Positions 29,397 to 45,037 of a stretch of 64,000 nt of DNA are shown piece by piece (within the stretch, counting starts at the first letter, position 1; the number at the start of each line of letters is the position of its first letter). A model generated the notes under the pieces. The model had not been told where the DNA came from. It saw nothing but the letters and a program-made list of their open reading frames with translations, and did no database searches. Source of the stretch: Phycisphaerales bacterium (GTDB lineage Bacteria > Planctomycetota > Phycisphaerae > Phycisphaerales > SM1A02); NCBI GenBank assembly GCA_030749435.1, contig JASMKH010000011.1:3325-67324 (forward strand). The letters are read 5' to 3'. The position numbers and the translations under genes are program-made.

Positions 29397-29474
29397 GCCC
29401 CCTCACAGCGGGGCTCTCGTTGGGCTTTGGAAGGGGCGATCGTACCATAGGACGCGCCTGGGGGCGAAGCGCGG

Positions 29475-29503
29475 TTGACACCCGCGGCCCGATGCCGCAT
29501 CAT
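29475..29503 (+). promoter_or_regulatory. Candidate sigma70-like promoter for guaB (TTGACA-17 nt-CATCAT)
   Basis: Perfect -35 hexamer at 29475-80. A 4/6 -10 match sits at 29498-503. The predicted TSS would coincide with ATG 29510. Promoter rules for this lineage are unknown. Confidence 0.25.
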
Positions 29504-29509
29504 CCGCAG

Positions 29510-30994
29510 ATGGAGCGTCTCTCGATCCCCGAAGGCATCACGTTCGACGATGTGCTGCTGGTTCCCCAGCGGAGCAACCTCACGCCGGATCAGGTCGATG
29601 TCTCGACACGCCTGACTCGTCGAATCTCCCTGCAACTCCCGCTCGTCTCCGCGCCCATGGACACCGTGACGGAGTCCCGGCTGGCGATCTCGTTGGCACA
29701 GGAGGGGGGCGTTGGCATCATCCACAAGAACCTCACGCCCGCGATGCAGGCAGCGGAAGTTGCCCGCGTCAAGCGAAGCCAGAACGGCATCATCACCGAC
29801 CCGGTCACGCTGAGCCCGGATGATTCTGTGCAACGGGCGATCGACTTGATGGAGTCACACCACGTCTCCGGGTTCCCGGTGACGCTCGACGGCACCGGAG
29901 GGGCCCGCGTTGCCGGAATCCTGACCCGGCGAGACATCAACTTCGTCGAGTCACCGCTCGATCGTGTCGGTGACGTCATGACGCCCCGGGAACGATTGGT
30001 GACCGCCGCCGCCGACATCAATCTGGCCGACGCAGAGTCACTCATGAGCCGTGGCAGAATCGAAAAACTGATTCTCGTCGATTCGGACGACGCCCTCGCA
30101 GGGCTCATCACGATGCGGGACATTGAGAATGTCCGCCGGCATCCGAACGCGTGCCGCGATGACCGTGGTCGGCTTCGAGCCGGCGCAGCCGTGGGCGTGC
30201 ACCAGATGGATCGGGTGGCAGCCCTCATTGCCGCCGATGTCGATGTGCTCGTCGTGGATACGGCCCATGGTCACTCTGAAAACGTGCTGCAGTCCGTCCG
30301 CGACATCAAGGCTGCCTACGACATCGACGTCATCGCTGGCAACATCGCCACGGGTGAGGCCGCCGAGGACCTCATCGAGGCTGGCGCCGATGCGGTCAAG
30401 GTCGGCATTGGCCCGGGAAGCATCTGCACCACGCGCATCGTTAGTGGGGTCGGCGTGCCGCAACTCACCGCGATTGCCAATGCCTGCGTGGCGTGCCAGG
30501 CCTCCGGCGTGCCGGTCATTGCCGACGGAGGTATTCGACAGAGCGGCGATGTCCCCAAGGCGATTGGCTTCGGGGCCTCTGCCGTTATGTTGGGATCACT
30601 GTTTGCGGGCATGGAAGAGAGTCCGGGCGAATTGGTGCTGCACGGCGGCCGACGCTACAAGACCTACCGCGGCATGGGCAGCATCGGCGCCATGGGTCGT
30701 GGCTCGGCCGATCGGTACGGGCAGGCCGGGGTCACCGAATCCACCAAACTGGTGCCCGAAGGGGTCGAAGGTCGGGTGCCGTATCGGGGCTCGCTGAGCG
30801 ACTTTGTCCATCAGATGATCGGGGGGTTGCGGGCCGCCATGGGCTACTGCGGATGTGAGACCGTCGAGGCGCTTCGCCAACGAGCGAGTTTCGTGCGGGT
30901 GAGCGGCGCTTCGCTGGTCGAGTCGCACGCGCACGACATCCAGATCACCAAGGAGTCGCCCAATTACACGACGTCCCCAAGGGGAAGCGAGTAG
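29510..30994 (+). CDS. guaB: IMP dehydrogenase
   Basis: [25 protein letters not shown] pair, [11 protein letters not shown] catalytic loop, [11 protein letters not shown] 29492 is the alternative start. Confidence 0.95.
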
Positions 30995-31049
30995 GCTGAC
31001 CTGACCCCGCGTCCGAGTTGGACGCCCGCCAAGTGGGTCGGGGAGTCTC

Positions 31050-32180
31050 ATGCCAACAGCCAACGCAACTCAGAACGCCGAGCCCCCGATGCCCACGCGG
31101 CGACGGGATCGGATTCTCATGTTGGGACGCCGCAAGGCCGGCAAGACGGTCTTCCTGGCGCGGCTCTATGAACAGGCATGGCGGGGCGGTGATGGACTGC
31201 ACATGCGGGCCGCCGAAGGCGCGATGCACGAACTGTGCATGGAAATCGTGGAGCAACTGCACCACGGCCAGTGGCCCGCCGCCACCGCGGGTTCGCTCTG
31301 CAGCGAGGTCGAGGTCACGTGGCTCGGCATGCAGGCCACCATGCTCATGCTCGACTACCCGGGCGAAGTGTTTCGCCAGGCATTCGTCGAAGGTGGGGGC
31401 GGCGCGCAGGCCGACGAGTTGATTGACCATCTCGACCATGCCGCTGCTGTGATCCTGCTCATTGACCCGGGCAATGTGCACGCGGGCTCCGCCCGCGAAG
31501 TGGTGGACGATGACTATGGAATGGTGCAGGCGGTGGACTACCTCCGCCGCAGCCCGGGCGGCACTCAAGTCCCCCTCGCCGTCGCGCTCACCAAGTGCGA
31601 CGAGCACGTGGGACTGGTTCGATCTGCCGGCGGGGCGCGGGGTTTCATCGAGTCGAAGATTCCGAACCTGACGCAGTACGGCGGCCGGATGCGCATTTTT
31701 GCGACGGCCGCGGTGCGGACCCGCGGCGATGCGCTCGGTCGTCCGGTCCCCAATACCCAGCACGAGCCAGCGGGCCTCTCCGACGCGTTGAAGTATTGCA
31801 TGAAGCACGTCGGCGCCGCCATGGCCCAAGCAGCGAGAAACAATCGGGAGGCGGCCCGCCGCGACGAGCTCAACAGGGCTGCCGCCCGTGACCGCCGCTT
31901 CGCCCAGCAGTCGTTTCGCAGGTGGGTCGGTTTTTGGGTGGCGATGGGGATCTTCGGTGTCGTCGTCATCGTCGTGGCATTGTTCGTTGCGTTCCGGGAG
32001 CCGCAGCCCACCGAGTCGATTGCACCTCCGGTCATGGCGCCGCCGGCTGAGGTGGTGCCAGTTCCAGAGCCTGAGCCAGTTCCAGAGCCAGAGCCAGTGC
32101 CCGAGCCCGAAGCCACCGAGGATCCGGGACCGCGTATCGGCAAACTCAAGCCTTCCACTGCTGGCGGAAGCGAACCGTGA
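31050..32180 (+). CDS. Membrane-anchored Ras-like small GTPase (locus gene A)
   Basis: G1 GRRKAGKT (31125-31148), G3 DYPGE, G4 TKCD. C-terminal TM WVGFWVAMGIFGVVVIVVALFVAF, then a (PVPEPE)3 tail. GGGAG sits 5 nt upstream of the ATG. Confidence 0.85.
   Translation: MPTANATQNAEPPMPTRRRDRILMLGRRKAGKTVFLARLYEQAWRGGDGLHMRAAEGAMHELCMEIVEQLHHGQWPAATAGSLCSEVEVTWLGMQATMLMLDYPGEVFRQAFVEGGGGAQADELIDHLDHAAAVILLIDPGNVHAGSAREVVDDDYGMVQAVDYLRRSPGGTQVPLAVALTKCDEHVGLVRSAGGARGFIESKIPNLTQYGGRMRIFATAAVRTRGDALGRPVPNTQHEPAGLSDALKYCMKHVGAAMAQAARNNREAARRDELNRAAARDRRFAQQSFRRWVGFWVAMGIFGVVVIVVALFVAFREPQPTESIAPPVMAPPAEVVPVPEPEPVPEPEPVPEPEATEDPGPRIGKLKPSTAGGSEP
32058..32111 (+). repeat. 3 x 18-nt in-frame tandem repeat encoding (PVPEPE)3 in the GTPase tail
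   Basis: ccagttccagagcctgag / ccagttccagagccagag / ccagtgcccgagcccgaa. Confidence 0.8.
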
Positions 32181-33871
32181 TCTTCGAGACGCACCTCATG
32201 GGTTCCGATGGGGGCTATGGGGAGCGGGCGTGGTCGGCCGGACTGAGTGAGCGAGAACGCCAGGCCCTTCGGGACGTCGATCTTGGACATCCCAACGTGC
32301 GCACACTTGAACTCGGATCGGTCATGCTGTTCGGTCGGCCCCTCCCGGCCGGGCGAATCGCAGTGACGGCATGCGTTGCCGGGCCGAACGATGAAGCCGG
32401 ACGGCGGACTGTCGAGTTCCGGTCCATCGTCATGGCACGAGCGGACTGGACCTGCCGCGCTCGGCACGACCCCCCGCAACTGCTCGACGCTGCGCTCTGG
32501 GAAGATCCGTCCTTCGAGCAGGGCCGGACGCTCAATGTCTCGCCGGGGACGGTTGATGAGGCCGATCCCTGCAGCGACGCCCGCCTGCTGGCAGCCGCGG
32601 TGCGGCTGGGCGTGGGGCCGATTCATCTGGTCCACGGCCCGCAGACCCACGCGGCCATGCTGGGCATGCTGAGCGCACTGTCCGATCATGAGGCCGGCAA
32701 TCTGCGATGGGGCCTTCGGCTCAATCGCCCGTCCGCCGATCTTGACGTGGCAACGCTCGACCCGGCAGCACCCACCGGCGGTGTCAGCCGCACAACGCTC
32801 AAGGCGCTCCGACACATCGTGGACGAAGCACGGGAGGAGGCTGCCCTCCATGCCTCCGGTGCGGACGCTGCAGCCAGTGGCAGCGACCTTCCCCGCGGCG
32901 GCCGCGGGTTGCGCGTGGCGAGCGGGGTGCTGATCGCACTGGCAGTGGTGCTGACCGGTTGGTTGATTTCGGCGCGTTGGCAGGATGCCCCGGTTCCGCC
33001 GCCAACCGACCCGCCCGCCCCGCACCTTCCGACCACCGTGCCGAGCCCGCCAGTCACCTCGAGGACCTCGCCGAAACCTCACCCCCCGCGGCCGCCCGCA
33101 GATCCGCAGCCACCACCGGACCCGGTTCCAGCAGCGCCGCCCAACTCGTCCACACCCTCCGAGCAGGAGGCCCCCCCAACGCCGGATCCCGCTGTTCCGA
33201 CGCCTGCGCCGCCCGAGATCCCGAGCGATCCGCGAGTCGTGGCCGATGCAATCGGGGCCTTCAACCGCGATGCATTCGATTGGTGCGAGCACGCCGCCAT
33301 GGGCACCCTGACCCGGTCGGTGCGTCGGCATTGCATCGATGCCGCCATCACCGAGTTCTACGACTCCACATCCGGGTGGACTGCCCAACTCGGCGATTCG
33401 TACCAGATGCCGGACGAACTCTCACTCTGCACCCTTCTCGAACGAGCACAACGCGCCGATGCACTCTTTGAGTGGATGGGCGGGGGGACTACGCCCCCAT
33501 GGGCCGACCTTGATGAGACGATGGAATGGCTCCGCGACATCCCCGAACGCCCGCAGTCGGTGTGGCTCGGGCAGGTGAACGATCGCATCACGGCCCTCCA
33601 GGACTGCCAGCGCAAACTGGCGACCTTCACCAAGTTCCTCGCCGCGGTGCAGACCCCGTGGCGTCACGCGCCGCAGGCACCGTGCTCGCTCGAGACGGCC
33701 GCCAGAGAACTCGCCTCCTACCAGGCCCCATGTGCGCCGGAAGCCGTCGCGCTGATCGCTGATCCGCCGGGCACCAGATGGCCCCTGCGAGACCTGCCAC
33801 TCAACTCGGTGGCGAAATCCTGGACATTTCTGCAACAACAACGCGATGCTGTGACGAACCCCAGAGAGTGA
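32177..33871 (+). CDS. Bitopic protein: cytoplasmic N-domain (paralogous to gene H), TM, Pro-rich spacer, Cys-containing C-domain (locus gene B)
   Basis: GTG 32177 overlaps the gene A TGA (GTGA). TM is VASGVLIALAVVLTGWLISA. About 90 aa of P-rich linker follows. The C-terminal ~200 aa contains 6 Cys. Confidence 0.8.
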   Translation: MIFETHLMGSDGGYGERAWSAGLSERERQALRDVDLGHPNVRTLELGSVMLFGRPLPAGRIAVTACVAGPNDEAGRRTVEFRSIVMARADWTCRARHDPPQLLDAALWEDPSFEQGRTLNVSPGTVDEADPCSDARLLAAAVRLGVGPIHLVHGPQTHAAMLGMLSALSDHEAGNLRWGLRLNRPSADLDVATLDPAAPTGGVSRTTLKALRHIVDEAREEAALHASGADAAASGSDLPRGGRGLRVASGVLIALAVVLTGWLISARWQDAPVPPPTDPPAPHLPTTVPSPPVTSRTSPKPHPPRPPADPQPPPDPVPAAPPNSSTPSEQEAPPTPDPAVPTPAPPEIPSDPRVVADAIGAFNRDAFDWCEHAAMGTLTRSVRRHCIDAAITEFYDSTSGWTAQLGDSYQMPDELSLCTLLERAQRADALFEWMGGGTTPPWADLDETMEWLRDIPERPQSVWLGQVNDRITALQDCQRKLATFTKFLAAVQTPWRHAPQAPCSLETAARELASYQAPCAPEAVALIADPPGTRWPLRDLPLNSVAKSWTFLQQQRDAVTNPRE

Positions 33872-33873
33872 CC

Positions 33874-36207
33874 ATGTCGATCGGTCTGCGACATCTCGAC
33901 CGCGCAGTGCTCAGTTGCGGCCTGCTCACGCTCGCCCTCGGGTGCCAGTCCCCGCAGCAGGCCACCGAAGCCGCTGCCGACGAGACGCCGGTTCGAGACC
34001 CGAGGCCCGACGGGCGCGACGAAACGCGATGGGCGCAGCGGCAACGACCGGCCCCGAGCGCCACCTTGCCGAACAGCCAACTGTGGGCGGATGCATCATC
34101 CCCTACGCCGACCGGACGACCCTCGCCACCGCAGCGAACTGACGCCTCGGCAGCGGCACCCCCCCCGGATTCCCCCCCGGATTCCCCCCCGGATTCCCCC
34201 CCGGATTCCCCCCCGGAGTCCCCCTCGGAATCTCCCTCGGAATCTCCCTCGGAATCTCCCCCGGAATCCCCCCCGCAATCAACACCCCCCCCGGAGTCCC
34301 CCCAGCAGTCAACACCCCCCCGGGACGCCGCCCCGCCAGTCGATCCCCAGCAGCAGTCCCAATCACCACCGACCCGCACGCAGCCATCTGCGGCGACATC
34401 CGAAGACCTCCCGTCACCGGAGCGCCAGCCCCCCGCAACGTGTGATGGCGGTAGTGAGTCGGGAAGCGGTGGCGTTCCATCGGCCGGGGCGAATGACGCG
34501 CAGCCATCCACGTCTGCGCCGCAAGGCGCGACCTCGCAGGCAGGGGGTGACCCCAGCGATGAACCTGCCGCGGATCCCGGACGATCGCGGCAACTCGAAT
34601 CGCTCGAGGTGGCGGAGGGGGAGACCATCTCGCAGCGCCGCCCGGGTGGCCTCGACTCAAACGCCAGCCCCACCCCGCCAGAGGGGTCCGAGGCCGGTCC
34701 GGCACGTGAGGAGGGCGCCCAAGGCGATTTGGATGGCCACACGATGGAGCCGCAGGGCCTGCTTGAGGCGGCAAGGGCCGAGGGCCCCGACCAGTCACGC
34801 CCTGAGTGGGCCGTGTCGCCCGAAGCGACAACTCCGCCCGAGCCCGGGGCAGGGGGTGGCCCCTCGGGTGATCAGACCGGCAGCAGCGACGGGGACGCGG
34901 GCGGTTCGGACGGGTCGGGGGGGGCCGCGATGGAGGACGCTTCCGGTCGATCCGCCAGGGCCAGCCAGTCGGATGCACTCGAGCACACCGCCGGGACAAG
35001 TACCGCCGAGGGCGAGATCGAGGGCACACAGCCGCCGGAGCCGGCAGACGCCCAGGTGGAGGCTTCTGCCGCAGAGACCGCGCAGGCCGCCGGTGAGCGG
35101 CCCATCGACGTGGCCGCAGCCGCTGCTGCAGCGGCCGCCGCAGTGGAGAACGCGAGGAACTTCCACGCCGCCTTCAGCGCCGACCCGGGAGTCACCGACA
35201 CCGGTGACGATCTCGTTTCCAGAGGTGAGCACTTTGAGCCGTGGCACCGCGAGGTCCGCGGCGTCTGGGAACTCGTCTCGGTCACCGATGCCGATGAGGA
35301 CTTCATTCCCGGCGGCGCCACGCGTCGCTTGATCGGGATCGATCCCGTGCAGCGCGAACTCAACGCCTACATGGCCACCGGTGGGCGGTCCCGGGAGTGG
35401 CAGTCACTTGCATTCGAGGCGGCGTTTCGCAAAGCGCAGGTGGAGATCAGACCACTCGCCGATCGCCCCTCCGCGCTGGGTGAGCACAGCGGACTCCATC
35501 CCGCTGCAGTCGAGGTGCCCTGCGAGACCGCTTGGGCGAGGGAGGGAAGGTTTCTGCATCTCGCAGGTGGGGTCTACGCTCCGGGAGATCCCGAAGAAGT
35601 CGTCCAGATCATGGAGGCGCCGGATGTCACCCCGACTCCGACCACGCCCCTGGCCGGGCCTCTGGACCATGGGGCCGGTGGCGCATCGGCCGCATCTCCG
35701 ACGGTCGACTTCTTCGGTGTGCAGTCGCATGGTCGTTTCGTCGCCTACATCCTCGATGTGTCGCGATCCATGCGGGGTCGCATGGCTCGCCTGCAGGGGG
35801 AACTCGAAGCATCGCTCACATCGCTTCCGAGAAACGCGAGATTCGTGGTGCTTCCGTTCAACAGCACACTGCTCAAACTGCAGCCGCAATGGACCTTGGC
35901 CAGTCAGGGAAATACACGACGGGTTGGACGGGCGCTTGCCGACGTCGCGGCTGGAGGGGGGACCGATCCTGCCGAGGCCTTCGAGTGGGCGTTTCGAACC
36001 CTCGACCCCCGACCGGATGAGATCTACTTCATGACCGACGGCGCCGTCGAAGAGAGTCGCCAGTTGCTCAAGCGGCTTCGCACCTTGAATGCAGGAAGTG
36101 GGAAGACCCGAATCCACGCCATCGGACTGGGGCTCAATGCTGAAATCGGTTTCCTGAAGGCGGTGGCGGGGGACCATGGCGGTCGGTTCGTGCACGTCAC
36201 GCAGTGA
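33874..36207 (+). CDS. Lipoprotein with >400-aa acidic disordered linker and C-terminal von Willebrand factor A domain (locus gene C)
   Basis: ATG 33874 lies 2 nt after the gene B stop. Lipobox is LTLALGC. PPDS/PSES repeats are present. The vWA domain has an intact MIDAS: DVSRS (D at 35755), GGTD and MTDG. Confidence 0.85.
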   Translation: MSIGLRHLDRAVLSCGLLTLALGCQSPQQATEAAADETPVRDPRPDGRDETRWAQRQRPAPSATLPNSQLWADASSPTPTGRPSPPQRTDASAAAPPPDSPPDSPPDSPPDSPPESPSESPSESPSESPPESPPQSTPPPESPQQSTPPRDAAPPVDPQQQSQSPPTRTQPSAATSEDLPSPERQPPATCDGGSESGSGGVPSAGANDAQPSTSAPQGATSQAGGDPSDEPAADPGRSRQLESLEVAEGETISQRRPGGLDSNASPTPPEGSEAGPAREEGAQGDLDGHTMEPQGLLEAARAEGPDQSRPEWAVSPEATTPPEPGAGGGPSGDQTGSSDGDAGGSDGSGGAAMEDASGRSARASQSDALEHTAGTSTAEGEIEGTQPPEPADAQVEASAAETAQAAGERPIDVAAAAAAAAAAVENARNFHAAFSADPGVTDTGDDLVSRGEHFEPWHREVRGVWELVSVTDADEDFIPGGATRRLIGIDPVQRELNAYMATGGRSREWQSLAFEAAFRKAQVEIRPLADRPSALGEHSGLHPAAVEVPCETAWAREGRFLHLAGGVYAPGDPEEVVQIMEAPDVTPTPTTPLAGPLDHGAGGASAASPTVDFFGVQSHGRFVAYILDVSRSMRGRMARLQGELEASLTSLPRNARFVVLPFNSTLLKLQPQWTLASQGNTRRVGRALADVAAGGGTDPAEAFEWAFRTLDPRPDEIYFMTDGAVEESRQLLKRLRTLNAGSGKTRIHAIGLGLNAEIGFLKAVAGDHGGRFVHVTQ
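34159..34325 (+). repeat. 12-nt periodic tandem repeats with iterated C7-C8 tracts inside the vWA lipoprotein gene
   Basis: (ccccccggattc)x4, ccccccggagtc, (ccctcggaatct)x3, and related units. Two ~24-nt ...gcaRtcaacaccccccc units follow. Encodes PPDSx4, PPES, PSESx3... Confidence 0.9.
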
Positions 36208-36215
36208 TCGGTCCG

Positions 36216-37136
36216 CTACTGCGCAATGGAGGTGCCATGACGTATCGCGTCGTTGTACCTGAGCGTGGGTGAGGCGAGGATCGGTTCGACGTTGTGCTCG
36301 AACCCGCGCTCAACGACGAGTCGCCTCGCGGCGTGAAACTTCTCGAACGAGTCCGGCGTCACCCGGAACGAAATGAACTGCGATCGCGGTTCCAACTGAT
36401 CGAGCAGCGTTCCGATTGCCCGCAAGTCGTTGTCGGTCTCCATCGGCAGGCCGCCGTCCGGCCGAAGCTGGAGGCTGCGATCGATCCGCCGACCTCCCGT
36501 CCGAAACTCGCACGTTCCGTGGTCCTCGAAGGTGGAGGCGTCCGGATCGACCGCCTGCACATTCCAGGTGGACCAGAACCGGCACCGATCACCGATGGGA
36601 TTCGGCGTCAGTTTCCAGTCGGACCAGTCATTGACCAGATACAGGCGGTCATTTGTGAGATACACCTGAACCGGAATGCGATGCTCGATGGCGTGCCTGC
36701 GCGGCGTCCGCAGCGGAATCGTCTGCTTGTCCTTCGCGTCCTGCACCTGCCGCGTGAGGCTGCGGATGCGGGCTTGGCGGGCTTCCAGTTCACCCTCGGA
36801 ATCTGAGGCGCGGAGGTTGTCGCGGAAGCGGTCGATCAATCCGCCGAGTTCCAGCTTGATGCTCAGCATGCGTTCCATTTCACCACGCGTTCGCTCGCGG
36901 GCGGTGCGAAGCGTCATGTCGGCATCCTGCTCGATCGACTCGATGGCCAACCGCAGTCTGGCCGCCTCGAGCGATCGTTCGGGCGTCCGGGCTTCCATCG
37001 CGTCGATCGTTCGTTCGCCTCGCGCCGCGGCCAACACCGCCGCCAGCACGGCGATGAAGATCACCATGCCGAACATATTGCAGATCGTGTCGAGCAGAAG
37101 GTCAAGGCTCGACTCGTGCTCACTGGAGCGTCTCAT
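36216..37136 (-). CDS. ExbD/TolR-topology protein: N-terminal TM with conserved Asp, coiled coil, C-terminal domain (locus gene D)
   Basis: ATG 37136 overlaps the gene E TGA (ATGA). MRRSSEHESSLDLLLDTICNMFGMVIFIAVLAAVLAA has Asp16 at 37089-91. A heptad-like helical segment follows, then a Trp-rich C-domain. Confidence 0.8.
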   Translation of the reverse strand: MRRSSEHESSLDLLLDTICNMFGMVIFIAVLAAVLAAARGERTIDAMEARTPERSLEAARLRLAIESIEQDADMTLRTARERTRGEMERMLSIKLELGGLIDRFRDNLRASDSEGELEARQARIRSLTRQVQDAKDKQTIPLRTPRRHAIEHRIPVQVYLTNDRLYLVNDWSDWKLTPNPIGDRCRFWSTWNVQAVDPDASTFEDHGTCEFRTGGRRIDRSLQLRPDGGLPMETDNDLRAIGTLLDQLEPRSQFISFRVTPDSFEKFHAARRLVVERGFEHNVEPILASPTLRYNDAIRHGTSIAQ

Positions 37137-37909
37137 GGCTCCGACCTTCGGCCGGGGAACTGGCCCGTCGTGCTTGAGTCTTCGGAGATGAGGTCGATGC
37201 CGACGGCGACATCCGAGAACCGCGGGTCCCGGTCGATCTTCCGCATGATCGCCTGCCATGCGGCGAAGCCCGACGGTTTGATGCTGAGAAGCAGGTGCGT
37301 GGGCCTGGACGTCGAGGCGGTGAGCCACGCCTCGAGCGCGGCTGTCGCGATCTGCTCGGGTGTTCCGGTTCGCATCCGCGGGGCGATCCGCGGGTCGGTC
37401 CTCGAGAGCACGACGCGACCACCCATCAACTCCGTGACGAGCGCGTCGCTGTCGTCGTCTGCGACGAGGTAGGAGATCTGCCGCCGACGTTTGATTGCTT
37501 CAAGTTCACCTTGAAGCTGGCCCTCTCGGGTCGCCAGCCTGTCCAACTCGGCGAGGTCTCCGCGTCGCAGCGAGTTCGCGGCCTGCGTCTGCAGGGACTC
37601 CAGTTCCCATCGCCGCGACTCGACCAGCCCAGCTTCCAACTCCAGTGCGGCCTGGAGTTGCTCGAGTTCCGCCAGAATCACATCCCGGCCGGGCCGCGCC
37701 TGGAGTTCTTCGAGCCGGGCGCGGAGTGACTCGACCGCTTCCTCCGAGTCCTCGGAGTACACGGCGGCGACCGCCTGTGAAGTGCGTTTGCCAATGCTCA
37801 GCAGCAGCACGAGCGTGATGATCAGCACGACCCCGATCGTTCCGATCATGACGTCCTGAAACGAGAAGAAACTGATCGGCGCCGCGCGACCCGCCCGCCG
37901 CCGGCTCAT
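37133..37909 (-). CDS. ExbD/TolR-topology protein with long coiled coil (locus gene E)
   Basis: ATG 37909 overlaps the gene F TGA (ATGA). ISFFSFQDVMIGTIGVVLIITLVLLL resembles the ExbD 'IDVMLVLLIIF' segment, with Asp19 at 37853-55. An E/L/Q/R-rich coiled coil follows. Confidence 0.8.
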   Translation of the reverse strand: MSRRRAGRAAPISFFSFQDVMIGTIGVVLIITLVLLLSIGKRTSQAVAAVYSEDSEEAVESLRARLEELQARPGRDVILAELEQLQAALELEAGLVESRRWELESLQTQAANSLRRGDLAELDRLATREGQLQGELEAIKRRRQISYLVADDDSDALVTELMGGRVVLSRTDPRIAPRMRTGTPEQIATAALEAWLTASTSRPTHLLLSIKPSGFAAWQAIMRKIDRDPRFSDVAVGIDLISEDSSTTGQFPGRRSEP

Positions 37910-38796
37910 GCCGGTTCGTCCGGGGCCACCCTGACATGCGCCGTGATGTTGCGAGCGGCGTACTGCCGGCAGTCGTCGAGGAGCCGTTCGTCGCTCCGCC
38001 GTACGAATGTCAGGCTCAAGTGCAGCAGCAGGGCGGCAATGAGCCCCTCGCCGGTCGTGACAAAGGCCGTGTCGAGCCCGGCGATGACGTCAGTGAGCCG
38101 GTCGGTCAACCCGCCCATCGTGGCGTCACTTGACTCGAGCACGCCTCCGAACCCGGAGATGGCCTCGGTCAGACCGATGATGGTTCCGATGAATCCGAGG
38201 ACCGGGATGGCCCAGATGAGCCCACGGACGACCGTGTAGCCGCTGTCCATGGCATCCTCATCGGCTTCGGCCGCCGACTTGAGCATTTCATCCAGATCGG
38301 CGATTCGCCCAATGTTGCGGATCGACTTGAGCGCAATCACGACGCGGTCGAGCAGCAGAAAGCGATGCGGTTCGTCGACACCATGTTCGATCGAGTCAAT
38401 CACCCGGTCCACGGTCCGTACCGAGAGCGTGAAGCCAGCGTCAGAGGGCACAAACCGAAGCCGAAGTGCGGCCCGCTGCGCCGCAACCTTGCCAGCCTTG
38501 AGCAGCAGGATGGCAGCTGCCCAGCACGAGAGCAGCATGATGGGAATGGGGATGCCTGAGAATCCGGTGAGGTACTCCCAGACGACCGCGCCCCATCCCG
38601 TCCCCCGCACTGCCCAGGCGGTGGCATAGACCACGCCCATGAATGCAAGTCCGACAACCATCGAGGCACTTGAAGATGGCGTTGTGAAGCGCCCGGAGGG
38701 CAGGCCGAGTCGCCTCTCGGGATCGAGCGAGGCGTACGAAAGAACTCGAATGGGCTGCTGGTCCCAGGCCGCCGGCGGTGGTGCTGATCCCGTCAT
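37906..38796 (-). CDS. MotA/TolQ/ExbB-family proton-channel protein (locus gene F)
   Basis: ATG 38796 overlaps the gene G TGA (ATGA). Three TM helices. C-terminal signature WAIPVLGFIGTIIGL...GLDTAFVTTGEGLIAALLL. Confidence 0.85.
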   Translation of the reverse strand: MTGSAPPPAAWDQQPIRVLSYASLDPERRLGLPSGRFTTPSSSASMVVGLAFMGVVYATAWAVRGTGWGAVVWEYLTGFSGIPIPIMLLSCWAAAILLLKAGKVAAQRAALRLRFVPSDAGFTLSVRTVDRVIDSIEHGVDEPHRFLLLDRVVIALKSIRNIGRIADLDEMLKSAAEADEDAMDSGYTVVRGLIWAIPVLGFIGTIIGLTEAISGFGGVLESSDATMGGLTDRLTDVIAGLDTAFVTTGEGLIAALLLHLSLTFVRRSDERLLDDCRQYAARNITAHVRVAPDEPA

Positions 38797-41642
38797 GGCG
38801 CTACGAAGATAATCGCTGGAGCATGGGGCATGTTGCCAGGCCATGGCATTGACCCTGAGGCGTCGGAGGTATCGATGCGATGGAATCGCCAGCCCAGCGG
38901 TGCTCGCAGCAACACTTCGGCGGGCTGGTCGGCTCCGTCAGGCATGTCCATGGCTGCAACGTGCGGATTCTCGGAGTCCGGTCGAAGCAGGCCGCCGATG
39001 ATGCGAGGCTTCACGGCCTCGGAGAGTTCAGCCACTTCCCTTCGCCACGCCTGCCGGATCTCGTCGGATGATGGGGCGGCGTGCGGCGCATGCAGCGCCT
39101 GGCGGCGCACTTCATGCTGCGTTGGCGCGGCAGCCTTCGGCGCCAGTTTGACCCAATCGGCGGTGGTGGCACTCGGGGCTGGCGCCGAGAGTGTGTCCAA
39201 CCAATGCGCCCCGGCTTCAGCAATGCCCTCAGGCAAGGGCACGGCCGGGCTGCGCAGTGTGCTCCATACCGTGCGAAGAATGGCGAGCACGAGGAGCGGG
39301 TCCTGCTCATTGCACTGTTCAACAGCCTGCAGCAACGCTGCGGCCGCTTCGGGACTGCGGCTCCCTCTCCACGCTTCCAGCCCGCGGTGCAGGGCGGCGA
39401 CCGCGGGGGGCGGACTCGGTTCGACGCCGGCGAACATCACCCGCTGCGCCTCGTGTGTGAGGGGCTCAAGGTGGGATGCCGGAACTCGAAGATCCTGGCG
39501 GGACTCCAGACGCCGCCAGGAATGACCGGCCCGCTTCAGATAGTGGTACCCCGTTGGAGTCTCGGCGCGGTACAGATCGAGGAGCCCCGAGTCCTCAAGC
39601 GCCGCTTCGAGCGGGTCAAGATGGCGGGCGTCCTGCATGGCCGATGCGATGCGAACAAGCCGCTCGGCGGCGGATCGATACGGCGAGTGCATGCCGTGGG
39701 CGTCCAGATGTGACTGCAGGCTTGTCTTGGCGCCACCCACGAGCGGCAACTGGGGCGGCCCATCGGTGGACCACAATTGGGCCTCGGCGATTCCAGAGAG
39801 GCGCGATCGCCAGTCCTCGACAGCCCTGGCCGCCGAGGCGGCCTCGGCCGCGAGACCCCACTTCGCCCGGTCGCCCGCGTTGATGACGTCCGGATACTCG
39901 GAGATCAGCGTGTCCCACGCGCGAGCCCACATCGACTCGGTCGTCGGAACGTGGCTGAGTACCTTCAGGGCTCGTTGACCCTCCAGGAGGCGGTCGACCC
40001 TGGTCGTGGCGAGTGACCGCAACGTCGTGACGCGATGCTCCAGTGATTCGAGCCGCTGCTGCGTTGTGATCTCATCGGCGGCGGGCCGCAGGCGGATCGC
40101 CGCCAGCAGGCGAGCTGCCTCGCGGGCCTCGGCGAGACGGGCGGTCCAACCAGCCAGATCCCCAGGAAGGGGGTTGGGCTCCTTGAACAGCAACTCGATG
40201 GATGCCAACTCCTCCAGACGGGCGGTTCGCTCCTGTTGCAGCAGGGCCGTGCGGTGTGCCGTGGCCTGCTCGAGGGCCGCGTCGCTGGCCGCGTGCAGCG
40301 GTGGTGGAAGATCCGGCTGCACCCGGCGGAGCAGCGCGATGGCCGACTGGACGGATGCGAGCGAGTCGGCCTCACGCTCCAGCATCGACGTGGCTCGAAG
40401 GAGGGCGTCCTCCGCAGCAGTTCGACGGACGGCAAGGGTCTCGGATGCCCGCCCGATGGCGGCCCGGTGCGAAGCGATCTCAGCGACCTCCGTGAGGTGG
40501 GCTCGCTCGGCCTCAGCCCAGCAGTCCAGCGCCTCCGGGAGCCGGTCGGTCTGCAGCGCCGCAGCCATGCAATCCGAGAGGTACGTAATGGTTCGTGCTC
40601 GCTCAAGGCTCTGATGTCTGACGAATATGATCACCGCCAGTGCCGAGGCCACCGCGACGATGGCCAACGCGCCGACTGTGAATCGGCGGGCGCGGGCTCG
40701 CCGCTCCTCCGCGATTCGGTGGGCCACGCGGGTCTCGACGGTCCGCGGGATGGCAGCCCCGGCCTCGATCGCGGCGGCGTAGCGGCGTTCGATTCCATGC
40801 ACGGGCTCGAGTTCATCCAGCGACCGAACGAGGTCGATCACCAGATTGGCCTTGGCATCGACGCGGTCCCTGCGATCCTGATCGGCCTCGAGCCAACTTA
40901 GAACTCCTCGAATGGCGATGTCGGAGCCGCCACCGGATGCTTCGGCCTGCGTGCGCCACTGCTGCACGAGCTCGGCAGCGGCCCCTGCATCCATGGCGGC
41001 CCACGCCAGATGCAACGCACGTTCGATGGCATCGAGGCGGCTGCCGGCTGCTTGGCGGGCAAGGTCCGCCATCGCATCGTCCAACTGATGCAGGAGGTGC
41101 TGGCCGCTGGCGGTGAGGAACTCCATCCGCTGTGCCTGCCTGGACATTTCGGCAATGGCACGCTCGTCTCCAGACCCAAGGCAACGCTCCACTTCAGTTG
41201 ACCACAGTGCAACGGCCGCCTGTTCCAGCGGCTCGTGCACTCGTTTCCAAAGCGGGTTGTTGGGCTCGAGCAGCCGCAGGGCCCGTGCGGCAGCGAGACG
41301 CGCTGGGAGCGGCCGATCTTCCAGATTGGCCAGCGTCCACTGATCGACCTCGTCGCGGTGCAGCTGCCCGGTTGCGGGGATTCTGGCCAGCGCTTCGAGA
41401 GAAGGGGTGGCAGGGAGTCTCAAGCCGGACGGAAGTGGCTGCCCCGACTCGTGCAGGGTCAGGCACAGCCCAATGATGTTGCCCGCGTCGGCATTGAGCG
41501 CCGCTGCTGCGATGGCGTCCCCGCGAACCGCCCATGTGGCGCACCATGCGAGCGATCGGGAGACAGCCTCGGCTGCGGCCCGCAGCGTCACTTCGTCATC
41601 GGGCTGGCGCATCGCCGCTCGGAGTGTCTCGGCCTGATTCAT
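38793..41642 (-). CDS. 949-aa all-helical bitopic membrane protein (locus gene G)
   Basis: ATG 41642 overlaps the gene H TGA (ATGA). A single TM (FTVGALAIVAVASALAVIIFV, 40618-40680) splits a ~320-aa N-part from a ~600-aa C-part. Both parts are A/L/R/E-rich and helical. No catalytic motif seen. Confidence 0.8.
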   Translation of the reverse strand: MNQAETLRAAMRQPDDEVTLRAAAEAVSRSLAWCATWAVRGDAIAAAALNADAGNIIGLCLTLHESGQPLPSGLRLPATPSLEALARIPATGQLHRDEVDQWTLANLEDRPLPARLAAARALRLLEPNNPLWKRVHEPLEQAAVALWSTEVERCLGSGDERAIAEMSRQAQRMEFLTASGQHLLHQLDDAMADLARQAAGSRLDAIERALHLAWAAMDAGAAAELVQQWRTQAEASGGGSDIAIRGVLSWLEADQDRRDRVDAKANLVIDLVRSLDELEPVHGIERRYAAAIEAGAAIPRTVETRVAHRIAEERRARARRFTVGALAIVAVASALAVIIFVRHQSLERARTITYLSDCMAAALQTDRLPEALDCWAEAERAHLTEVAEIASHRAAIGRASETLAVRRTAAEDALLRATSMLEREADSLASVQSAIALLRRVQPDLPPPLHAASDAALEQATAHRTALLQQERTARLEELASIELLFKEPNPLPGDLAGWTARLAEAREAARLLAAIRLRPAADEITTQQRLESLEHRVTTLRSLATTRVDRLLEGQRALKVLSHVPTTESMWARAWDTLISEYPDVINAGDRAKWGLAAEAASAARAVEDWRSRLSGIAEAQLWSTDGPPQLPLVGGAKTSLQSHLDAHGMHSPYRSAAERLVRIASAMQDARHLDPLEAALEDSGLLDLYRAETPTGYHYLKRAGHSWRRLESRQDLRVPASHLEPLTHEAQRVMFAGVEPSPPPAVAALHRGLEAWRGSRSPEAAAALLQAVEQCNEQDPLLVLAILRTVWSTLRSPAVPLPEGIAEAGAHWLDTLSAPAPSATTADWVKLAPKAAAPTQHEVRRQALHAPHAAPSSDEIRQAWRREVAELSEAVKPRIIGGLLRPDSENPHVAAMDMPDGADQPAEVLLRAPLGWRFHRIDTSDASGSMPWPGNMPHAPAIIFVAP

Positions 41643-42463
41643 GGCTCGATTCCATTCCAGAGAATCAGCGCCAGCACCGCCACCAGGCCGATGATCACCA
41701 TCGGGATGATCCACGCGCGGCGCCGCTCCGGTGGTTCCAGTGAGAGAACCGCCGCCTCACCGGCTTCGGTGGCCGGCGCCTCGCGGGTATCCGCGGGCTC
41801 CGCTTCGGCCAGGTCCAGTACGCTCGCCGCGGCGGTTGGCTGTGACTCGGCCGAAAGGAGTCGCACCAGCACGCCATCGGTGAACGCCGCACCGCCGAGC
41901 AGGAAGGTGAGGTCCCATTGACGCTCGAGTGGAATCGCCTGTTCAAGTTGCCGCAACGCCTCGATCGCGTCGACGTCACGTGGGAGTCGGGCGATGAAGC
42001 CTGTCCCACGCAGCACGAGCGAGGCGAGGTGGTTGGCCCAGCGATCGTCGAGCGGGCCCGCGGGCGGGGCACCGACGCTGGCAGGCAGCCGAGGCATGTC
42101 ATGTCGGTCTGTGCCCGACCGCGAGGTGAGAAACCAGCCACTCTGCAGCAGCGACACCGGTCCGTAGTCGGGACGTTCGCCTGCCGGCAGCACCAGATGG
42201 TGCGCCACCCGACCGGGTCGATCGCCGGCTGCCCCGGGCGTGCGGGAGATTCGGGTCAACACGGAGTGCCAACCGCCCTCGATTCTCAGTGATCGATGGG
42301 CCACCAGCGGCGGCGTGTCGACAGGGGGGCTCATCACAAGCCCGGATCTGGCCTCAAGCGTTGCGGCATCCTCGGCCGAGAGATGCGGGCTCTTCCACAC
42401 CGTCGCAAAGCCGGGGACGCCTGCGGCGGTTTGGGCGGACCAGGTATGAATCAACTCATGCAT
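41639..42463 (-). CDS. Tail-anchored protein with an N-domain paralogous to gene B (GAP1-N-like?) (locus gene H)
   Basis: ATG 42463 overlaps the gene I end by 8 nt (ATGCATGA). MHELIHTWSAQTAAGVPGFATVWKSPHLS ... GDRPGRVAHHLVL. C-terminal TM AWIIPMVIIGLVAVLALILW. Confidence 0.8.
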   Translation of the reverse strand: MHELIHTWSAQTAAGVPGFATVWKSPHLSAEDAATLEARSGLVMSPPVDTPPLVAHRSLRIEGGWHSVLTRISRTPGAAGDRPGRVAHHLVLPAGERPDYGPVSLLQSGWFLTSRSGTDRHDMPRLPASVGAPPAGPLDDRWANHLASLVLRGTGFIARLPRDVDAIEALRQLEQAIPLERQWDLTFLLGGAAFTDGVLVRLLSAESQPTAAASVLDLAEAEPADTREAPATEAGEAAVLSLEPPERRRAWIIPMVIIGLVAVLALILWNGIEP

Positions 42464-43160
42464 GGGCAGCGGTGTCCTCGCGGAGGCCGGTTGCCAGGAG
42501 CAGTGCCGCGGCCATCGCTTCGGGTCCCTCTTCGACTTCGATGGCGCCGGAGTCGAGTGTGCCGCACCGCGCCAACGTCACGCGATTCGTGATCGAGATC
42601 AGCGGCGGTGGCGGCTGGCCCGACGCGGCCAGTTGAAGCGTGGTCGTTCCGGGCCGGGCAGGGGGGGCGTCAGTGCCTGCGCCAGCGAGCACGACCTCGG
42701 GCCCTCGGGGCGTGTCGGTCGTCGTCAGAAACACCGTGCGGTGCGACCCATCCGGAAAGGCAAGCATGCAGGCGGCGATATCAAGATCGGCCGTGGGCTG
42801 CGCGGCTGCAACCTGTGAGAGGATGATCTCCAGCGTGCTCAACCGCTGGCGGGCATGCGCGATCAGTTTGGTGCGGGTTGACGCGGCGTCGTCTCCAGTG
42901 AGTCGCACCAGGCCCGTCGCTGCGCTCGACCAGAGGCACTCGGGCCACGCTCGCCGGCATGCGGGGCAGGCCGGCTGAGGCGACCTGCCACCATCGGGAT
43001 CGACCGGGCAGCCGCCAGCATCGAACCGGGTGGGCATGAATCGCAGTTGCTGGTCCGATCCGAGCACCGGATCTCCGATGAGCGACGCCGAGGTCGCGAT
43101 GAATCGCGAATCGGTCGAGGACCCGCAGAATCCGCACCAGGGGCACGTGAAGTTCCTCAT
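42456..43160 (-). CDS. Cytoplasmic Zn-ribbon protein, possibly a degenerate (P-loop-less) GTPase-like paralogue (locus gene I)
   Basis: Start at ATG 43160; the longer ORF to 43220 would overlap tRNA-Arg. CPWCGFC ... CPAC Cys pairs. GLVRLTGDDAASTRT aligns loosely with the P-loop region of gene A but lacks GK[ST]. Confidence 0.7.
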   Translation of the reverse strand: MRNFTCPWCGFCGSSTDSRFIATSASLIGDPVLGSDQQLRFMPTRFDAGGCPVDPDGGRSPQPACPACRRAWPECLWSSAATGLVRLTGDDAASTRTKLIAHARQRLSTLEIILSQVAAAQPTADLDIAACMLAFPDGSHRTVFLTTTDTPRGPEVVLAGAGTDAPPARPGTTTLQLAASGQPPPPLISITNRVTLARCGTLDSGAIEVEEGPEAMAAALLLATGLREDTAAHA

Positions 43161-43213
43161 GGGCACCAGTCTACGGTGAGGCGCCCGCGGCAGCGCTCTT
43201 GAAGTGACCGCGA

Positions 43214-43287
43214 CGTCCACGGCAGGACTCGAACCTGCAACCTTCGGCTTCGGAGGCCGACGCTCTATCCAATTGAGCTACGTGGAC
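43214..43287 (-). tRNA. tRNA-Arg (anticodon CCG)
   Basis: Hand-folded cloverleaf: acceptor GTCCACG/CGTGGAC, D-arm GCTC..GAGC, anticodon stem TCGGC/GCCGA with loop CTCCGAA, T-arm GCAGG-TTCGAGT-CCTGC, discriminator G. CCA is not encoded. Confidence 0.9.
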
Positions 43288-43450
43288 CGAAGCGAGGAGT
43301 GTACCCGTGGCTCGCCGCAGGAGGGTGCGACGCTTTCGGGCTCGCGGCGGCAATCGCCGAGGCGGGGCACGTCCGGATCGAAGCCCCAAACCACGCTGCG
43401 GTAGTATCTCGCCGGTGACCGATTCGAACCAGCCGGAACAGACTGCAGCG

Positions 43451-45037
43451 ATGCTCCGCCTCACGAGCGTTCGCGGACCCACTGTGCCCGCAGTGGAAGT
43501 GACCCGATCCGGCGGTGTCATCGGTCGCAGTTCGGCCTGCGAGGTGCGGCTGGTTGACGCCACGGTCTCGCGGCGGCATGCCGAGATTCGCTATCTGGGT
43601 GACCGGTGGATGCTGGTCGACCTCGGAGGCGCGAACGGCACGTGGCTCAATGATGTCCGGCTCGATGCCGAAACGGCAACGCCGCTGGCGCCCGGCGACC
43701 GAATCGGGGTCGGACCATGGGTGTTGCGGGTGGGCTCCTGGGCACCAACGACCATCGCCATGGCCGATGCGGATGCAAGCGAGGATGCGGCACTGATCCA
43801 GCCGCTGCAGCCCGATGCTGCCGGACAACTCGCGCACCACCGCCTTCAACTGGTGATCGACTGTGCCGGACGGATCAATGAGGCAGTGGACGAGCGGGAT
43901 CTGGCCCAGTCCCTGCTTGAGTCCGTGATCGAGGGAACGGGCTACTGCCGCGCGGCGCTCGTTCGTCTGGCTGGCGATGAAGAGGGTGTCGAGGTCCTCG
44001 GACGCCGCTCAAGCGATGACGGGCCCCCCGACCAATTCAGTCGAACACTCGTGACGCGGGCCTCGGCTGGCGAGTTTGTGACGCTTGCGGGCCAGCAGAC
44101 GGCGGACTGGGGCAGGAGCATCGCCGACCTGGCGATCCATTCGGCCATGTGCTGCCCGGTCCAGGTGGACGATCAGGTGGCGGCATGCCTGTACCTCGAC
44201 GCGCGAGGCAGCGAGGATCGGGTTGCCGACGACGCCGCTGGATTCTGCTACGCCCTGGCCAAGCTCGGCGGGCTCGCCATCGCCAACCTGCGACGACGAT
44301 CGATGCAGGACCGGCAGCGAGAGATGGACGCCGAGATGGCCGCCGCTCGCGAGGCCCAGCAACTGATGGTGCCGCTCAAACCAGCGGAACTCGTCGGGTT
44401 GGACTATGCAGTCGAGTTTCACCCGGGCCGGGTCGCCTCGGGCGATCTCTTCGATGTGGTGGAACTCTCGGGCGGTCGCATTGCGGTGATGCTTGGAGAC
44501 GTGTCGGGCAAGGGCGTGGGCGCCGCCATCCTCATGGCTGCTGCGCAGGCCTTTCTTCACTCGGCCCTGAGCCGGCACGAGCACCCGAATGACGCGGTGG
44601 CGGAGTTGAATGACTTCGTGAGGGAGCGAAGTGCGGCCAACCGATTCCTGACGCTGTGGGTGGGCGTCTTTCATCCCGGGGGAACCCTGGAGTATGTGGA
44701 CGCGGGCCACGGGTACTGGGCCCACTGCCGGGCGGGCGGAGCCGAAATCCATTCCGCCGCGGTCTCGCCCCTGGTCGGCGCTCTGGAGGACATCGAGTTC
44801 GTGGCGACGAAGATCGACGTGACCTCCGGCGACCGCATTGTGCTGATGACAGACGGCGTGCCCGAGCAGCCCGATCGCGAAGGGGCGCCGTTTGGGCTCG
44901 ACCGAATCCTCGAGGTGCTCGAGCGGACGCGGACATGCCAGGAGGATGTGCTTGAGTTACTCGCGGCGGTTCGGGCGTGGGCGGGGTCCGATGCGCTCGC
45001 CGATGACACGACCGTTGCGAGTGTGGCAGCCCGGTGA
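43451..45037 (+). CDS. FHA-GAF-PP2C (SpoIIE-type) serine/threonine phosphatase
   Basis: FHA: GVIGRSSACEVRLVDATVSRRHAEI...LVDLGGANGTWLN. Central GAF-like region. PP2C/SpoIIE: GDLFDVV..., MLGDVSGKGVGAAILMA, DAGH, LMTDGV. Start at ATG 43451 is uncertain. Confidence 0.85.
   Translation: MLRLTSVRGPTVPAVEVTRSGGVIGRSSACEVRLVDATVSRRHAEIRYLGDRWMLVDLGGANGTWLNDVRLDAETATPLAPGDRIGVGPWVLRVGSWAPTTIAMADADASEDAALIQPLQPDAAGQLAHHRLQLVIDCAGRINEAVDERDLAQSLLESVIEGTGYCRAALVRLAGDEEGVEVLGRRSSDDGPPDQFSRTLVTRASAGEFVTLAGQQTADWGRSIADLAIHSAMCCPVQVDDQVAACLYLDARGSEDRVADDAAGFCYALAKLGGLAIANLRRRSMQDRQREMDAEMAAAREAQQLMVPLKPAELVGLDYAVEFHPGRVASGDLFDVVELSGGRIAVMLGDVSGKGVGAAILMAAAQAFLHSALSRHEHPNDAVAELNDFVRERSAANRFLTLWVGVFHPGGTLEYVDAGHGYWAHCRAGGAEIHSAAVSPLVGALEDIEFVATKIDVTSGDRIVLMTDGVPEQPDREGAPFGLDRILEVLERTRTCQEDVLELLAAVRAWAGSDALADDTTVASVAAR

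Follow-up and report, generated by a model that had tools for sequence, protein, structure and literature searches.

A candidate ion-driven motor with two paralogous, stalked partner subunits in a GAP1-N2/DO-GTPase locus of Phycisphaerales

What kind of machine is built from a channel protein of the MotA/ExbB/TolQ class when its gene is followed by two different partner genes, and when all three lie in an operon headed by GAP1-N2 and GTPase-related genes? The question is raised by a stretch of 64,000 nucleotides, called the window below, from the metagenome-assembled genome (MAG) of a marine Phycisphaerales bacterium (assembly GCA_030749435.1, contig JASMKH010000011.1, forward-strand positions 3,325 to 67,324; G+C ~65%). 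Ion-driven motors with five channel subunits around two partners are the power source of flagella, of uptake through TonB, of Tol-Pal, of gliding, and of defence by Zorya. We propose that three consecutive minus-strand genes of the window, F, E, and D, probably encode a proton- or ion-driven motor of the MotA/ExbB/TolQ class in which five copies of F surround one D and one E, and that this motor is the core of a GAP1-N2/DO-GTPase system. The genes and codons on which the proposal turns are the following, in window coordinates.

37906..38796, minus strand: F, MotA/ExbB/TolQ-family channel subunit, 296 aa, four predicted transmembrane helices (Pfam PF01618)
37133..37909, minus strand: E, 258 aa, single-pass with the N-terminus inside (N-in); MSRRR, SFFSFQD(19)VM in the transmembrane helix, stalk, head
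36216..37136, minus strand: D, 306 aa, paralogue of E; SLDLLLD(16)TICNMFG in the transmembrane helix, stalk, head
38182..38184, minus strand: F Thr205 codon, equivalent to ExbB T148 and TolQ T145
38053..38055, minus strand: F Thr248 codon, equivalent to ExbB T181 and TolQ T178
37853..37855, minus strand: E Asp19 codon GAC, invariant in 120 family representatives
37089..37091, minus strand: D Asp16 codon GAC, invariant in 42 family members

At NCBI, E (QF561_04555) and D (QF561_04550) are both annotated as "hypothetical protein." A preliminary description of the locus had quoted peptides from these genes and located the two Asp residues; the minus-strand open reading frames (ORFs) give the quoted peptides, and both codons are GAC. 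The start and stop codons overlap by four nucleotides (ATGA) at all four junctions from the GAP1-N2 gene downward (GAP1-N2/G, G/F, F/E, and E/D), which fixes the true starts of F, E, and D and implies that they are translationally coupled.

The channel subunit is the most readily placed of the three proteins. The preliminary description had read a MotA_ExbB signature in F, and the Pfam model of that name matches residues 181-290 above its curated cut-off (41.6 bits against 22.9; E-value 1.3e-10), as it does the F homologue of the Planctomicrobium locus L069 (E-value 1.1e-10; L numbers denote related loci). The pore motifs are PVLGFIGT(205) and TAFVTT(248). When 77 F-family sequences from related loci were aligned with E. 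coli ExbB and TolQ, residues P141, G144, T148, and T181 of ExbB fell on P198, G201, T205, and T248 of F, each kept in 77/77 F-family sequences, and the acidic ExbB E176 position was not conserved in the family. F thus carries the same P/G/T...T pore motif as ExbB and TolQ. The E. coli ExbB and TolQ query sequences for this work were entered by hand; an ExbD sequence entered likewise is 99% identical to database entries. The pore threonines of ExbB, TolQ, and MotA surround the Asp of the partner subunit, a textbook feature restated in passages of PMC12204202. The F family was also recovered by jackhmmer from E. coli ExbB, and among PDB sequences the family profile matched only TolQ (E-value 0.16). 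F differs from ExbB and TolQ in its topology, since hydropathy predicts four transmembrane helices rather than three and puts the loop that joins helices 2 and 3 in the cytoplasm, the MotA-like arrangement.

The second requirement of such a motor is a partner helix bearing an acidic residue. In ExbD, TolR, and MotB, this residue is an Asp where the helix meets the cytoplasm (D25, D23, and D32, respectively). The N-termini of D and E are both basic (MxRRR), and in both the Asp lies one to two residues ahead of the hydrophobic core, which together indicate an N-in topology with the Asp at the cytoplasmic helix edge. The start of a single transmembrane helix is where the preliminary description had placed the two residues, and the placement stands. 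That description had also made its reading depend on the conservation of the Asp in orthologues, and the conservation is complete in the aligned families: D19 of E is invariant in 120/120 and D16 of D in 42/42. For E, a word-indexed search returned 14 relatives, with D19 kept in every one that has its N-terminus, and an exhaustive profile search returned 1022 cluster representatives at an E-value <=1e-3 and 203 at <=1e-10. The best 150 of these matches are nearly all full-length proteins of ~230-295 aa with few short fragments. Alignment of the 120 representatives, which are 18-47% identical to E, left F15, F17, Q18, and D19 as the only invariant columns, within the motif S[LF]F[SA]FQD[IV]. 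The 42 relatives of D, which reach down to 23% identity, keep L11, L14, L15, D16, T17, C19, N20, and F22 without exception, within the motif SLDLLLDTICNxFG. Like ExbD and TolR, then, D and E are N-in, single-pass proteins with a cytoplasmic-edge Asp that are encoded directly downstream of the channel gene. The surroundings of the Asp are not the same in the two families. Residues 16-20 of D (37080-37091, minus strand) read DTICN, with invariant Thr17, Cys19, and Asn20, and form a polar face unusual for ExbD/TolR helices; in E, unlike in D with its DTICN, an invariant Gln18 precedes the Asp. Judged from these motifs, the helix of D and that of E may contribute differently to the ion path.

Beyond the membrane, the two proteins are built alike. 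AlphaFold2 models of D and E were made as monomers from the family alignments. The D model (pLDDT 81.6) has helices across residues 10-138 followed by a confident alpha/beta domain at 148-305, and the E model (pLDDT 74.9) has helices across 15-145 followed by a beta-beta-beta-alpha-beta-alpha-beta domain at 157-240. In both, therefore, ~100-150 residues of helical stalk lie between the transmembrane helix and the head. The families match each other in a profile-profile comparison (E-value 1.8e-9) with D19 of E aligned on D16 of D, and the match is found again when the parts are compared separately, at an E-value of 8.5e-6 for the N-terminal segments and 6.6e-8 (hhalign) for the C-terminal domains; the two proteins are ~15% identical. 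By this comparison of profiles, D and E are end-to-end paralogues with one architecture and one origin. The preliminary description had given each protein a long coiled coil and then a distinct C-terminal domain; the helical stalk and the head are borne out, and the distinctness is not, the heads being homologous. In Phycisphaerae, an insert in the D head carries a cysteine pair (Cys185/Cys209) whose members are present or absent together, which fits a periplasmic disulfide and hence a periplasmic head. The description had also found no OmpA or TonB domain on D or E, and this is upheld: the Pfam models for ExbD, MotB, OmpA, and TonB have no match in D, E, or 176 relatives (42 + 14 + 120), for ExbD at an E-value <=1. 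D and E consequently do not belong to the Pfam ExbD family (PF02472), and neither has a convincing match to a Pfam, NCBIfam, or PADLOC family. Relative to ExbB-ExbD and to TolQ-TolR, this arrangement differs in having two dissimilar partners where those systems have a homodimer, and in the helical stalk of 100-150 residues inserted between membrane and head.

If D and E form one axle, their genes should travel together, and they do. One genome per species was scanned, and an E relative was found in at least 346 species. The best 80 of these all belong to the Planctomycetota-Verrucomicrobiota-Chlamydiota (PVC) group and include Phycisphaerae, Planctomycetia (one of them Planctomicrobium sp. SH661, whose genome is complete), Verrucomicrobiota (Prosthecobacter, for example), and one Lentisphaerae MAG. 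Neighbours were tallied by jackhmmer from the window proteins over related loci. D lies directly downstream of E in 71/74 loci with enough flank, and F lies upstream of E in all 74 (74/74), adjacent in 66 and with GYF or von Willebrand factor A (vWA) genes between in the other 8. Genes are inserted around F in the Planctomycetia loci L001 (4333-9146), L004 (4939-9942), and L069 (6850-9013); their products are a zinc-ribbon membrane protein and GYF membrane proteins, one of which has a periplasmic domain that is squalene-cyclase/prenyltransferase-like. L001 also has an HSP70 gene in convergent orientation with D. Four loci (L018 17736-18710, L031 17999-19021, L047 18732-19760, and L080 19671-20591) contain extra E-like or D-like ORFs beyond the DO-GTPase gene in the jackhmmer tally, and these may be coiled-coil false positives or added paralogues.

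A more demanding indication of pairing comes from the stalks. Stalk length was taken as the distance from the Asp to a conserved residue at the stalk end, anchored in the alignments (D19-Y147 in E and D16-P145 in D); these markers replaced those of a first, regex-based comparison, which gave r = 0.38 and proved to be poor. The window proteins measure 128 (E) and 129 (D) residues. Over 54 non-identical loci, the stalks range from 121 to 169 residues in E and from 115 to 171 in D, and the two lengths co-vary with a Pearson r of 0.97, a value not phylogenetically corrected, and a mean difference of 0.7 +/- 4.6 residues. The pairs fall into about six or seven classes, among them ~115/122, 128/129, 139/140, 153/149, and 171/160-169, and the existence of several distinct co-varying classes argues that the signal is not one inherited event. 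A two-stranded D/E stalk predicts stalks that match, genes that must occur together, and coupled translation, and these would be unexpected for separate D2 and E2 dimers. These results lend support to the D/E heterodimer put forward in the preliminary description. They also bear on what we consider the best-surviving, though unlikely, alternative, in which F pentamers would hold either D2 or E2 and so form two separate homodimeric motors that differ in their periplasmic heads. Canonical ExbD, TolR, and MotB are homodimers, and the strong divergence between D and E could reflect separate partners. However, each locus has a single F gene, D and E always occur together, adjacent and coupled, and the covariation of their stalks is hard to explain if the stalks never pair.

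The proposed motor of five F around one D and one E does not stand alone in the genome. Six minus-strand genes follow the gene for tRNA-Arg(CCG) (43214-43287) in the order zinc-ribbon, GAP1-N2, G, F, E, and D, ending at 36216, and a plus-strand operon of three genes (DO-GTPase, a 564-aa protein, and vWA) converges on them, with the end of the vWA gene 9 bp from the end of D. The neighbouring features are these.

38793..41642, minus strand: G, 949 aa, bitopic, transmembrane helix at 323-341, coupled to F
41639..42463, minus strand: GAP1-N2 domain protein, 274 aa, Pfam PF20013 (E-value 1.1e-8), C-terminal membrane anchor
42456..43160, minus strand: zinc-ribbon protein, ~234 aa, first gene of the minus-strand operon
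31050..32180, plus strand: DO-GTPase, 376 aa, Pfam DO-GTPase1/2 at ~1e-7, first gene of the convergent operon
32177..33871, plus strand: 564-aa protein with a weak GAP1-N2-like N-domain, transmembrane helix, Pro-rich linker, and periplasmic C-domain
33874..36207, plus strand: vWA lipoprotein, lipobox LALG|C, Pfam VWA_3 (E-value 9.3e-12)
43214-43287, minus strand: tRNA-Arg(CCG), immediately upstream of the operon, same orientation
43307-45037, plus strand: gene for an FHA + PP2C (SpoIIE-type) phosphatase, divergent from the operon

The start of the zinc-ribbon ORF was moved to the ATG at 43160 because the tRNA gene overlaps the naive GTG start. The same jackhmmer search links this protein to the first gene of the operon elsewhere, and the homologue in L069 (446 aa) matches DO-GTPase2 (E-value 2.5e-4); from this kinship, the zinc-ribbon protein is apparently a shorter relative of the ZnR-DO-GTPase with which the operon begins in other PVC bacteria. 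In the loci with at least 9 kb upstream, G is present in 43/44, a GAP1-N2 protein in 41/44, and a zinc-ribbon or GTPase-like first gene in 37/44; the vWA gene is present in 45/67 related loci. The Planctomicrobium operon (L069) encodes, in order, the DO-GTPase2-like protein, GAP1 (GAP1-N2 at 3.6e-29 and GAP1-M at 1.3e-15), G, a double-GYF protein, a zinc-ribbon membrane protein, the MotA_ExbB protein, E, and D. In the form that GAP1-N2/DO-GTPase systems take in PVC bacteria, F-E-D thus makes up the unvarying membrane core. Neither this membership nor the paralogy of D and E had been recognised in the preliminary description. Genes for TonB, TolA, and Pal are missing from the locus, and its linkage to GTPases further sets it apart from ExbB-ExbD and TolQ-TolR.

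Kaur et al. 2020 (PMC7159879) read GAP1-N2 systems as conflict systems and noted GYF proteins in the planctomycete ones, and the present locus resembles theirs in that GAP1-N2 (with GAP1-M in relatives) and DO-GTPase genes head the operons. MotA, ExbB, and TolQ do not appear in the main text or one supplement of that work, nor does ExbD in the supplement, and the FNIII-repeat protein of those systems has no counterpart here, as no fn3 match was found in nine window proteins or in the L069 proteins. Their framework suggests a second alternative, which we hold to be somewhat less probable than that of the two homodimeric motors: F, E, and D would be a depolarising abortive-infection effector, a plugged channel that a GAP1/DO-GTPase sensor opens so that the membrane potential collapses and no mechanical work is done. 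Some of the conflict systems to which Kaur et al. assign the GAP1-N2 and DO-GTPase domains do have pore-forming SLATT effectors, weak matches to ZorA and ZorB are found, and in Planctomicrobium a tyrosine integrase gene (L069 13610-14770) lies 2 kb downstream. Against this, effectors vary in the framework of Kaur et al., whereas F-E-D is constant across three phyla, and long matched stalks with conserved heads are needless for a simple leak. The chromosomal setting also speaks to the point. Flanks of IMPDH on one side and of FHA-PP2C and then succinate dehydrogenase on the other are common to the window (29420-45037) and to the MAGs of L002 and L003, in which E is ~43% identical; neighbours kept at this distance indicate long vertical inheritance rather than a mobile defence island. 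The same conclusion is reached from the F-E-D-G block, which is constant where the systems of Kaur et al. are variable: together with the kept neighbours, it argues against a typical mobile defence island. The FHA-PP2C gene keeps its divergent position in the Phycisphaerales loci L002 and L003, FHA/PP2C components also occur in other GAP1-N2 themes, and FHA is found in GltG of the Agl-Glt machinery; the phosphatase may belong to the system.

Zorya itself offers a MotAB-type unit that works outside motility, and it is to ZorB models and to 8vvn_B that the transmembrane segment of E is most similar. F matches ZorA models weakly and in the transmembrane part only. The tail of Zorya is cytoplasmic and carried on ZorA, in contrast to the present stalk, which is periplasmic and carried on the B-type subunits, and the present locus lacks an OmpA-like domain, ZorC, and ZorD. 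An assignment to Zorya was rejected, as F has only 296 aa without a long tail and the ZorC/ZorD partners are absent. A PADLOC scan of the neighbouring window proteins gave no match.

Do D and E then work in the manner of ExbD and MotB? That they do is suggested by an Asp that never varies, by the topology, by where the genes lie, and by the similarity of E to ZorB. Residues 13-67 of E align with positions 16-72 of the PADLOC ZorB (MotB-like) model (E-value 0.013). Three PADLOC ZorB models are matched by 23, 16, and 15 of the 120 E-family members, with a best E-value of 3.8e-5, and one member (P0283) aligns its N-terminal residues 14-76 on 19-80 of ZorB in register (E-value 3e-4). A profile of the first 48 residues of E gave two matches among PDB sequences at an E-value <=10, one of which is the MotB-related 8vvn_B, aligned Asp to Asp (SFQDimtsviGi with SFSDLMSGLLVIF), although the E-value of 2.5 is not significant alone. 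The preliminary description had staked its reading on a likeness of the transmembrane segments to those of ExbD, TolR, and MotB. For E this holds weakly, through the in-register alignments with ZorB and 8vvn_B; D has no ZorB match and is linked through its homology to E. As for the heads, the order of their secondary-structure elements in the AlphaFold2 models is compatible with the periplasmic domain of ExbD/TolR. Residues 217-280 of the D head are collinear with ExbD 61-128, a marginal likeness (hhalign P 0.003, probability 10%), and the E head gave nothing significant in the same comparison. The ExbD profile used here was built from 78 relatives found in a metagenome scan and replaced an earlier one limited to enterobacterial sequences at least 85% identical, which had almost no power. 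The reading of both heads as plain ExbD domains is only marginally supported for D and is unsupported for E. Foldseek matches of the E model to uS11, NTPDase, and ROK, which share the RNase H-like motif, were set aside as topology-level resemblance and not homology, and the full-length D model has no significant Foldseek match.

Several results count against the motor as proposed. Pfam, NCBIfam, and PDB-sequence searches give no match that ties D or E to ExbD, TolR, or MotB; no D-family member matches the ZorB models; and the N-termini of D and E, though they align with the ExbD profile in register (for E, PISFFSFQDVM/INVTPFIDVML), do so without significance (hhalign E-value 0.1-0.3). The top 50 Foldseek matches of the heads are uS11 or RNase H-like folds and not TolR or ExbD. 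The stalks of the monomer models break into 3-4 helices, so in these models the D/E stalk may fold back and not form one long coiled coil. The uncorrected covariation statistic belongs with these points. Additionally, jackhmmer from E. coli ExbD and TolR recovered neither D nor E, full-length profiles of the two returned only coiled-coil noise from PDB sequences, and Pfam and PADLOC scans of their family members were dominated by SMC-, JetC-, and LmuB-type coiled-coil matches. A canonical ExbD, TolR, or MotB gene that could serve F in their place was found neither in the operon nor in the window nor in ~84 related loci. The remaining alternative, that D and E are membrane-anchored coiled-coil scaffolds beside the channel that dock outside as TolA or TonB do, with the Asp serving helix packing and F acting alone or with an unlinked partner, is favoured by the lack of significant direct homology to ExbD/MotB and by the unrelated folds that Foldseek returns for the heads, yet it is the least probable of the three because an invariant charge at the same depth in two paralogous helices across phyla, beside a MotA/ExbB gene with an intact Thr ring, is the hallmark of a pore partner and because no alternative partner occurs in the window or ~80 loci.

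What the motor might act on is suggested by the topology of its neighbours. By hydropathy, G has ~320 aa in the cytoplasm, one transmembrane helix, and ~600 aa in the periplasm, and it has no known domain, with no match to TPR or any other Pfam model in 16 members; a tail anchor holds the GAP1-N2 protein in the membrane. In the DO-GTPase, the C-terminal transmembrane helix leads into an (E/V)P-rich periplasmic tail, VPEPEPVPEPEP, with weak compositional matches to the Pro-rich regions of TonB and GltJ. It is unusual for a cytoplasmic GTPase to carry a TonB-like rigid periplasmic spacer. The vWA protein consists of a signal peptide with the lipobox LALG|C, a ~600-aa low-complexity linker, and a C-terminal vWA domain with DxSxS. 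Its linker includes a Pro/Ser/Glu/Asp-rich repeat, SPPDSPPDSPPDSPPESPSESPSESPSE (34090-34330, plus strand), and freshwater Phycisphaerae relatives have long (GS)n or (GGAS)n runs at the same position, so that the linker is best described as a hypervariable low-complexity spacer. Lipoboxes recur in the Phycisphaerae relatives of this protein, and the Planctomycetia forms are shorter and transmembrane-anchored. The preliminary description had put the vWA head and the C-domains of G and of the 564-aa protein in the periplasm, in agreement with the lipobox, hydropathy, and charge pattern. That these parts meet the D/E heads in the periplasm is plausible, with putative contacts among them.

With these parts, a mechanism can be outlined by analogy with ExbBD, TolQR, and MotAB. 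Five F subunits, presumably in a 5:2 stoichiometry, would form the ion path around the D/E pair, whose N-terminal transmembrane helices would lie next to each other within the F-ring pore. D16 and D19 would face the Thr205/Thr248 ring of F, and alternating protonation of the two Asp residues would drive F to turn or cycle relative to D/E. The length-matched stalks would reach ~105 residues past the membrane in the present proteins, or at most ~15 nm if fully extended, and would end in paired homologous alpha/beta heads in place of a peptidoglycan-binding OmpA or TonB domain. The heads would hold a periplasmic partner, for which the candidates are the vWA lipoprotein and those domains of G and of the 564-aa protein that lie in the periplasm. 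On the cytoplasmic side, gating or output would come from the face of F together with the domains that G, GAP1, and the GTPases have there. Most likely, then, membrane energy would be coupled to a periplasmic partner under a cytoplasmic GTPase switch. In this outline, we infer the insertion of the helices in the pore, the ion dependence, the direction in which force or information flows, and the role, be it envelope mechanics or adhesion as against phage defence.

A precedent for a heterodimeric pore insert exists in the Agl-Glt machinery of Myxococcus, in which AglR5 is predicted to enclose a heterodimer of the TolR-like proteins AglQ and AglS (PMC11761067). The same machinery includes the GTPase MglA, the bitopic protein GltJ with ZnR and GYF domains and a Pro-rich linker, the FHA protein GltG, and the vWA lipoprotein adhesin CglB (PMC11761067). 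The present locus offers a likeness to each, with a regulatory GTPase, ZnR and GYF membrane proteins in the Planctomycetia variants, Pro-rich bitopic proteins, an FHA neighbour, and a vWA lipoprotein (an 809-aa protein here) to set beside CglB. By this analogy of parts, Agl-Glt would be the closest functional counterpart that we found. The likeness is one of parts and not demonstrably of orthology: NCBIfam matches to GltJ and GltG are domain-level and far below cut-offs, DO-GTPases stand in place of MglA, AglQ and AglS lack long stalks, and the organisms are PVC bacteria as opposed to Myxococcota. We offer only tentatively the larger reading that the ZnR-DO-GTPase/GAP1/G/F/E/D operon, with the vWA lipoprotein, the Pro-rich bitopic proteins, and in Planctomycetia the GYF/ZnR proteins, might be a GTPase-gated, ion-driven trans-envelope machine and a functional counterpart of Agl-Glt, in which F5:D:E would pull or turn a stalk tied to a surface vWA adhesin. 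Another set of PVC loci with vWA force transducers is described in PMC12204202 (MBE 2025, section 8), whose passages on them give a TonB-like transmembrane helix with an SHLS/His motif and a TPR gene. Compared with those passages, the vWA protein here is a lipoprotein, and the Phycisphaerae vWA proteins have a lipobox without the conserved His; G likewise lacks the TPR match. The term "coiled-coil" is absent from the main text of that paper, and GTPase is unmentioned in its section on the vWA loci and in passages of its supplement. Filing the present locus under those vWA-transducer loci was rejected, since neither the SHLS/His helix nor the TPR gene described in those passages is found, and the two sets of loci may overlap in part as far as the passages describe them.

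Each new variant of the 5:2 motor has revealed a new use of membrane energy outside the cytoplasm. What looks new to the class here is a heterodimeric, stalked axle that does not bind peptidoglycan and is obligately linked to a GTPase/GAP1 module. Two features of the proposed design are unusual, namely the obligate heterodimer with its matched stalks and a new head domain, and the linkage to a GTPase/GAP1 switch. The D and E families have no Pfam family and are unannotated, although the variant reaches at least 346 species across Planctomycetota, Verrucomicrobiota, and Lentisphaerae. A motor of this kind would supply a concrete mechanism at the membrane, open to test, for the GAP1-N2 systems that Kaur et al. 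described, and because the cultured Planctomicrobium sp. SH661 carries the system, it provides an entry point to the biology of the PVC envelope. If true, the tentative Agl-Glt-like reading would mean that one branch of the "GTPase-centric conflict systems" serves the mechanics of the envelope, for example in gliding, adhesion, or the remodelling of the surface, and does so in bacteria for which the biology of the envelope is poorly known.

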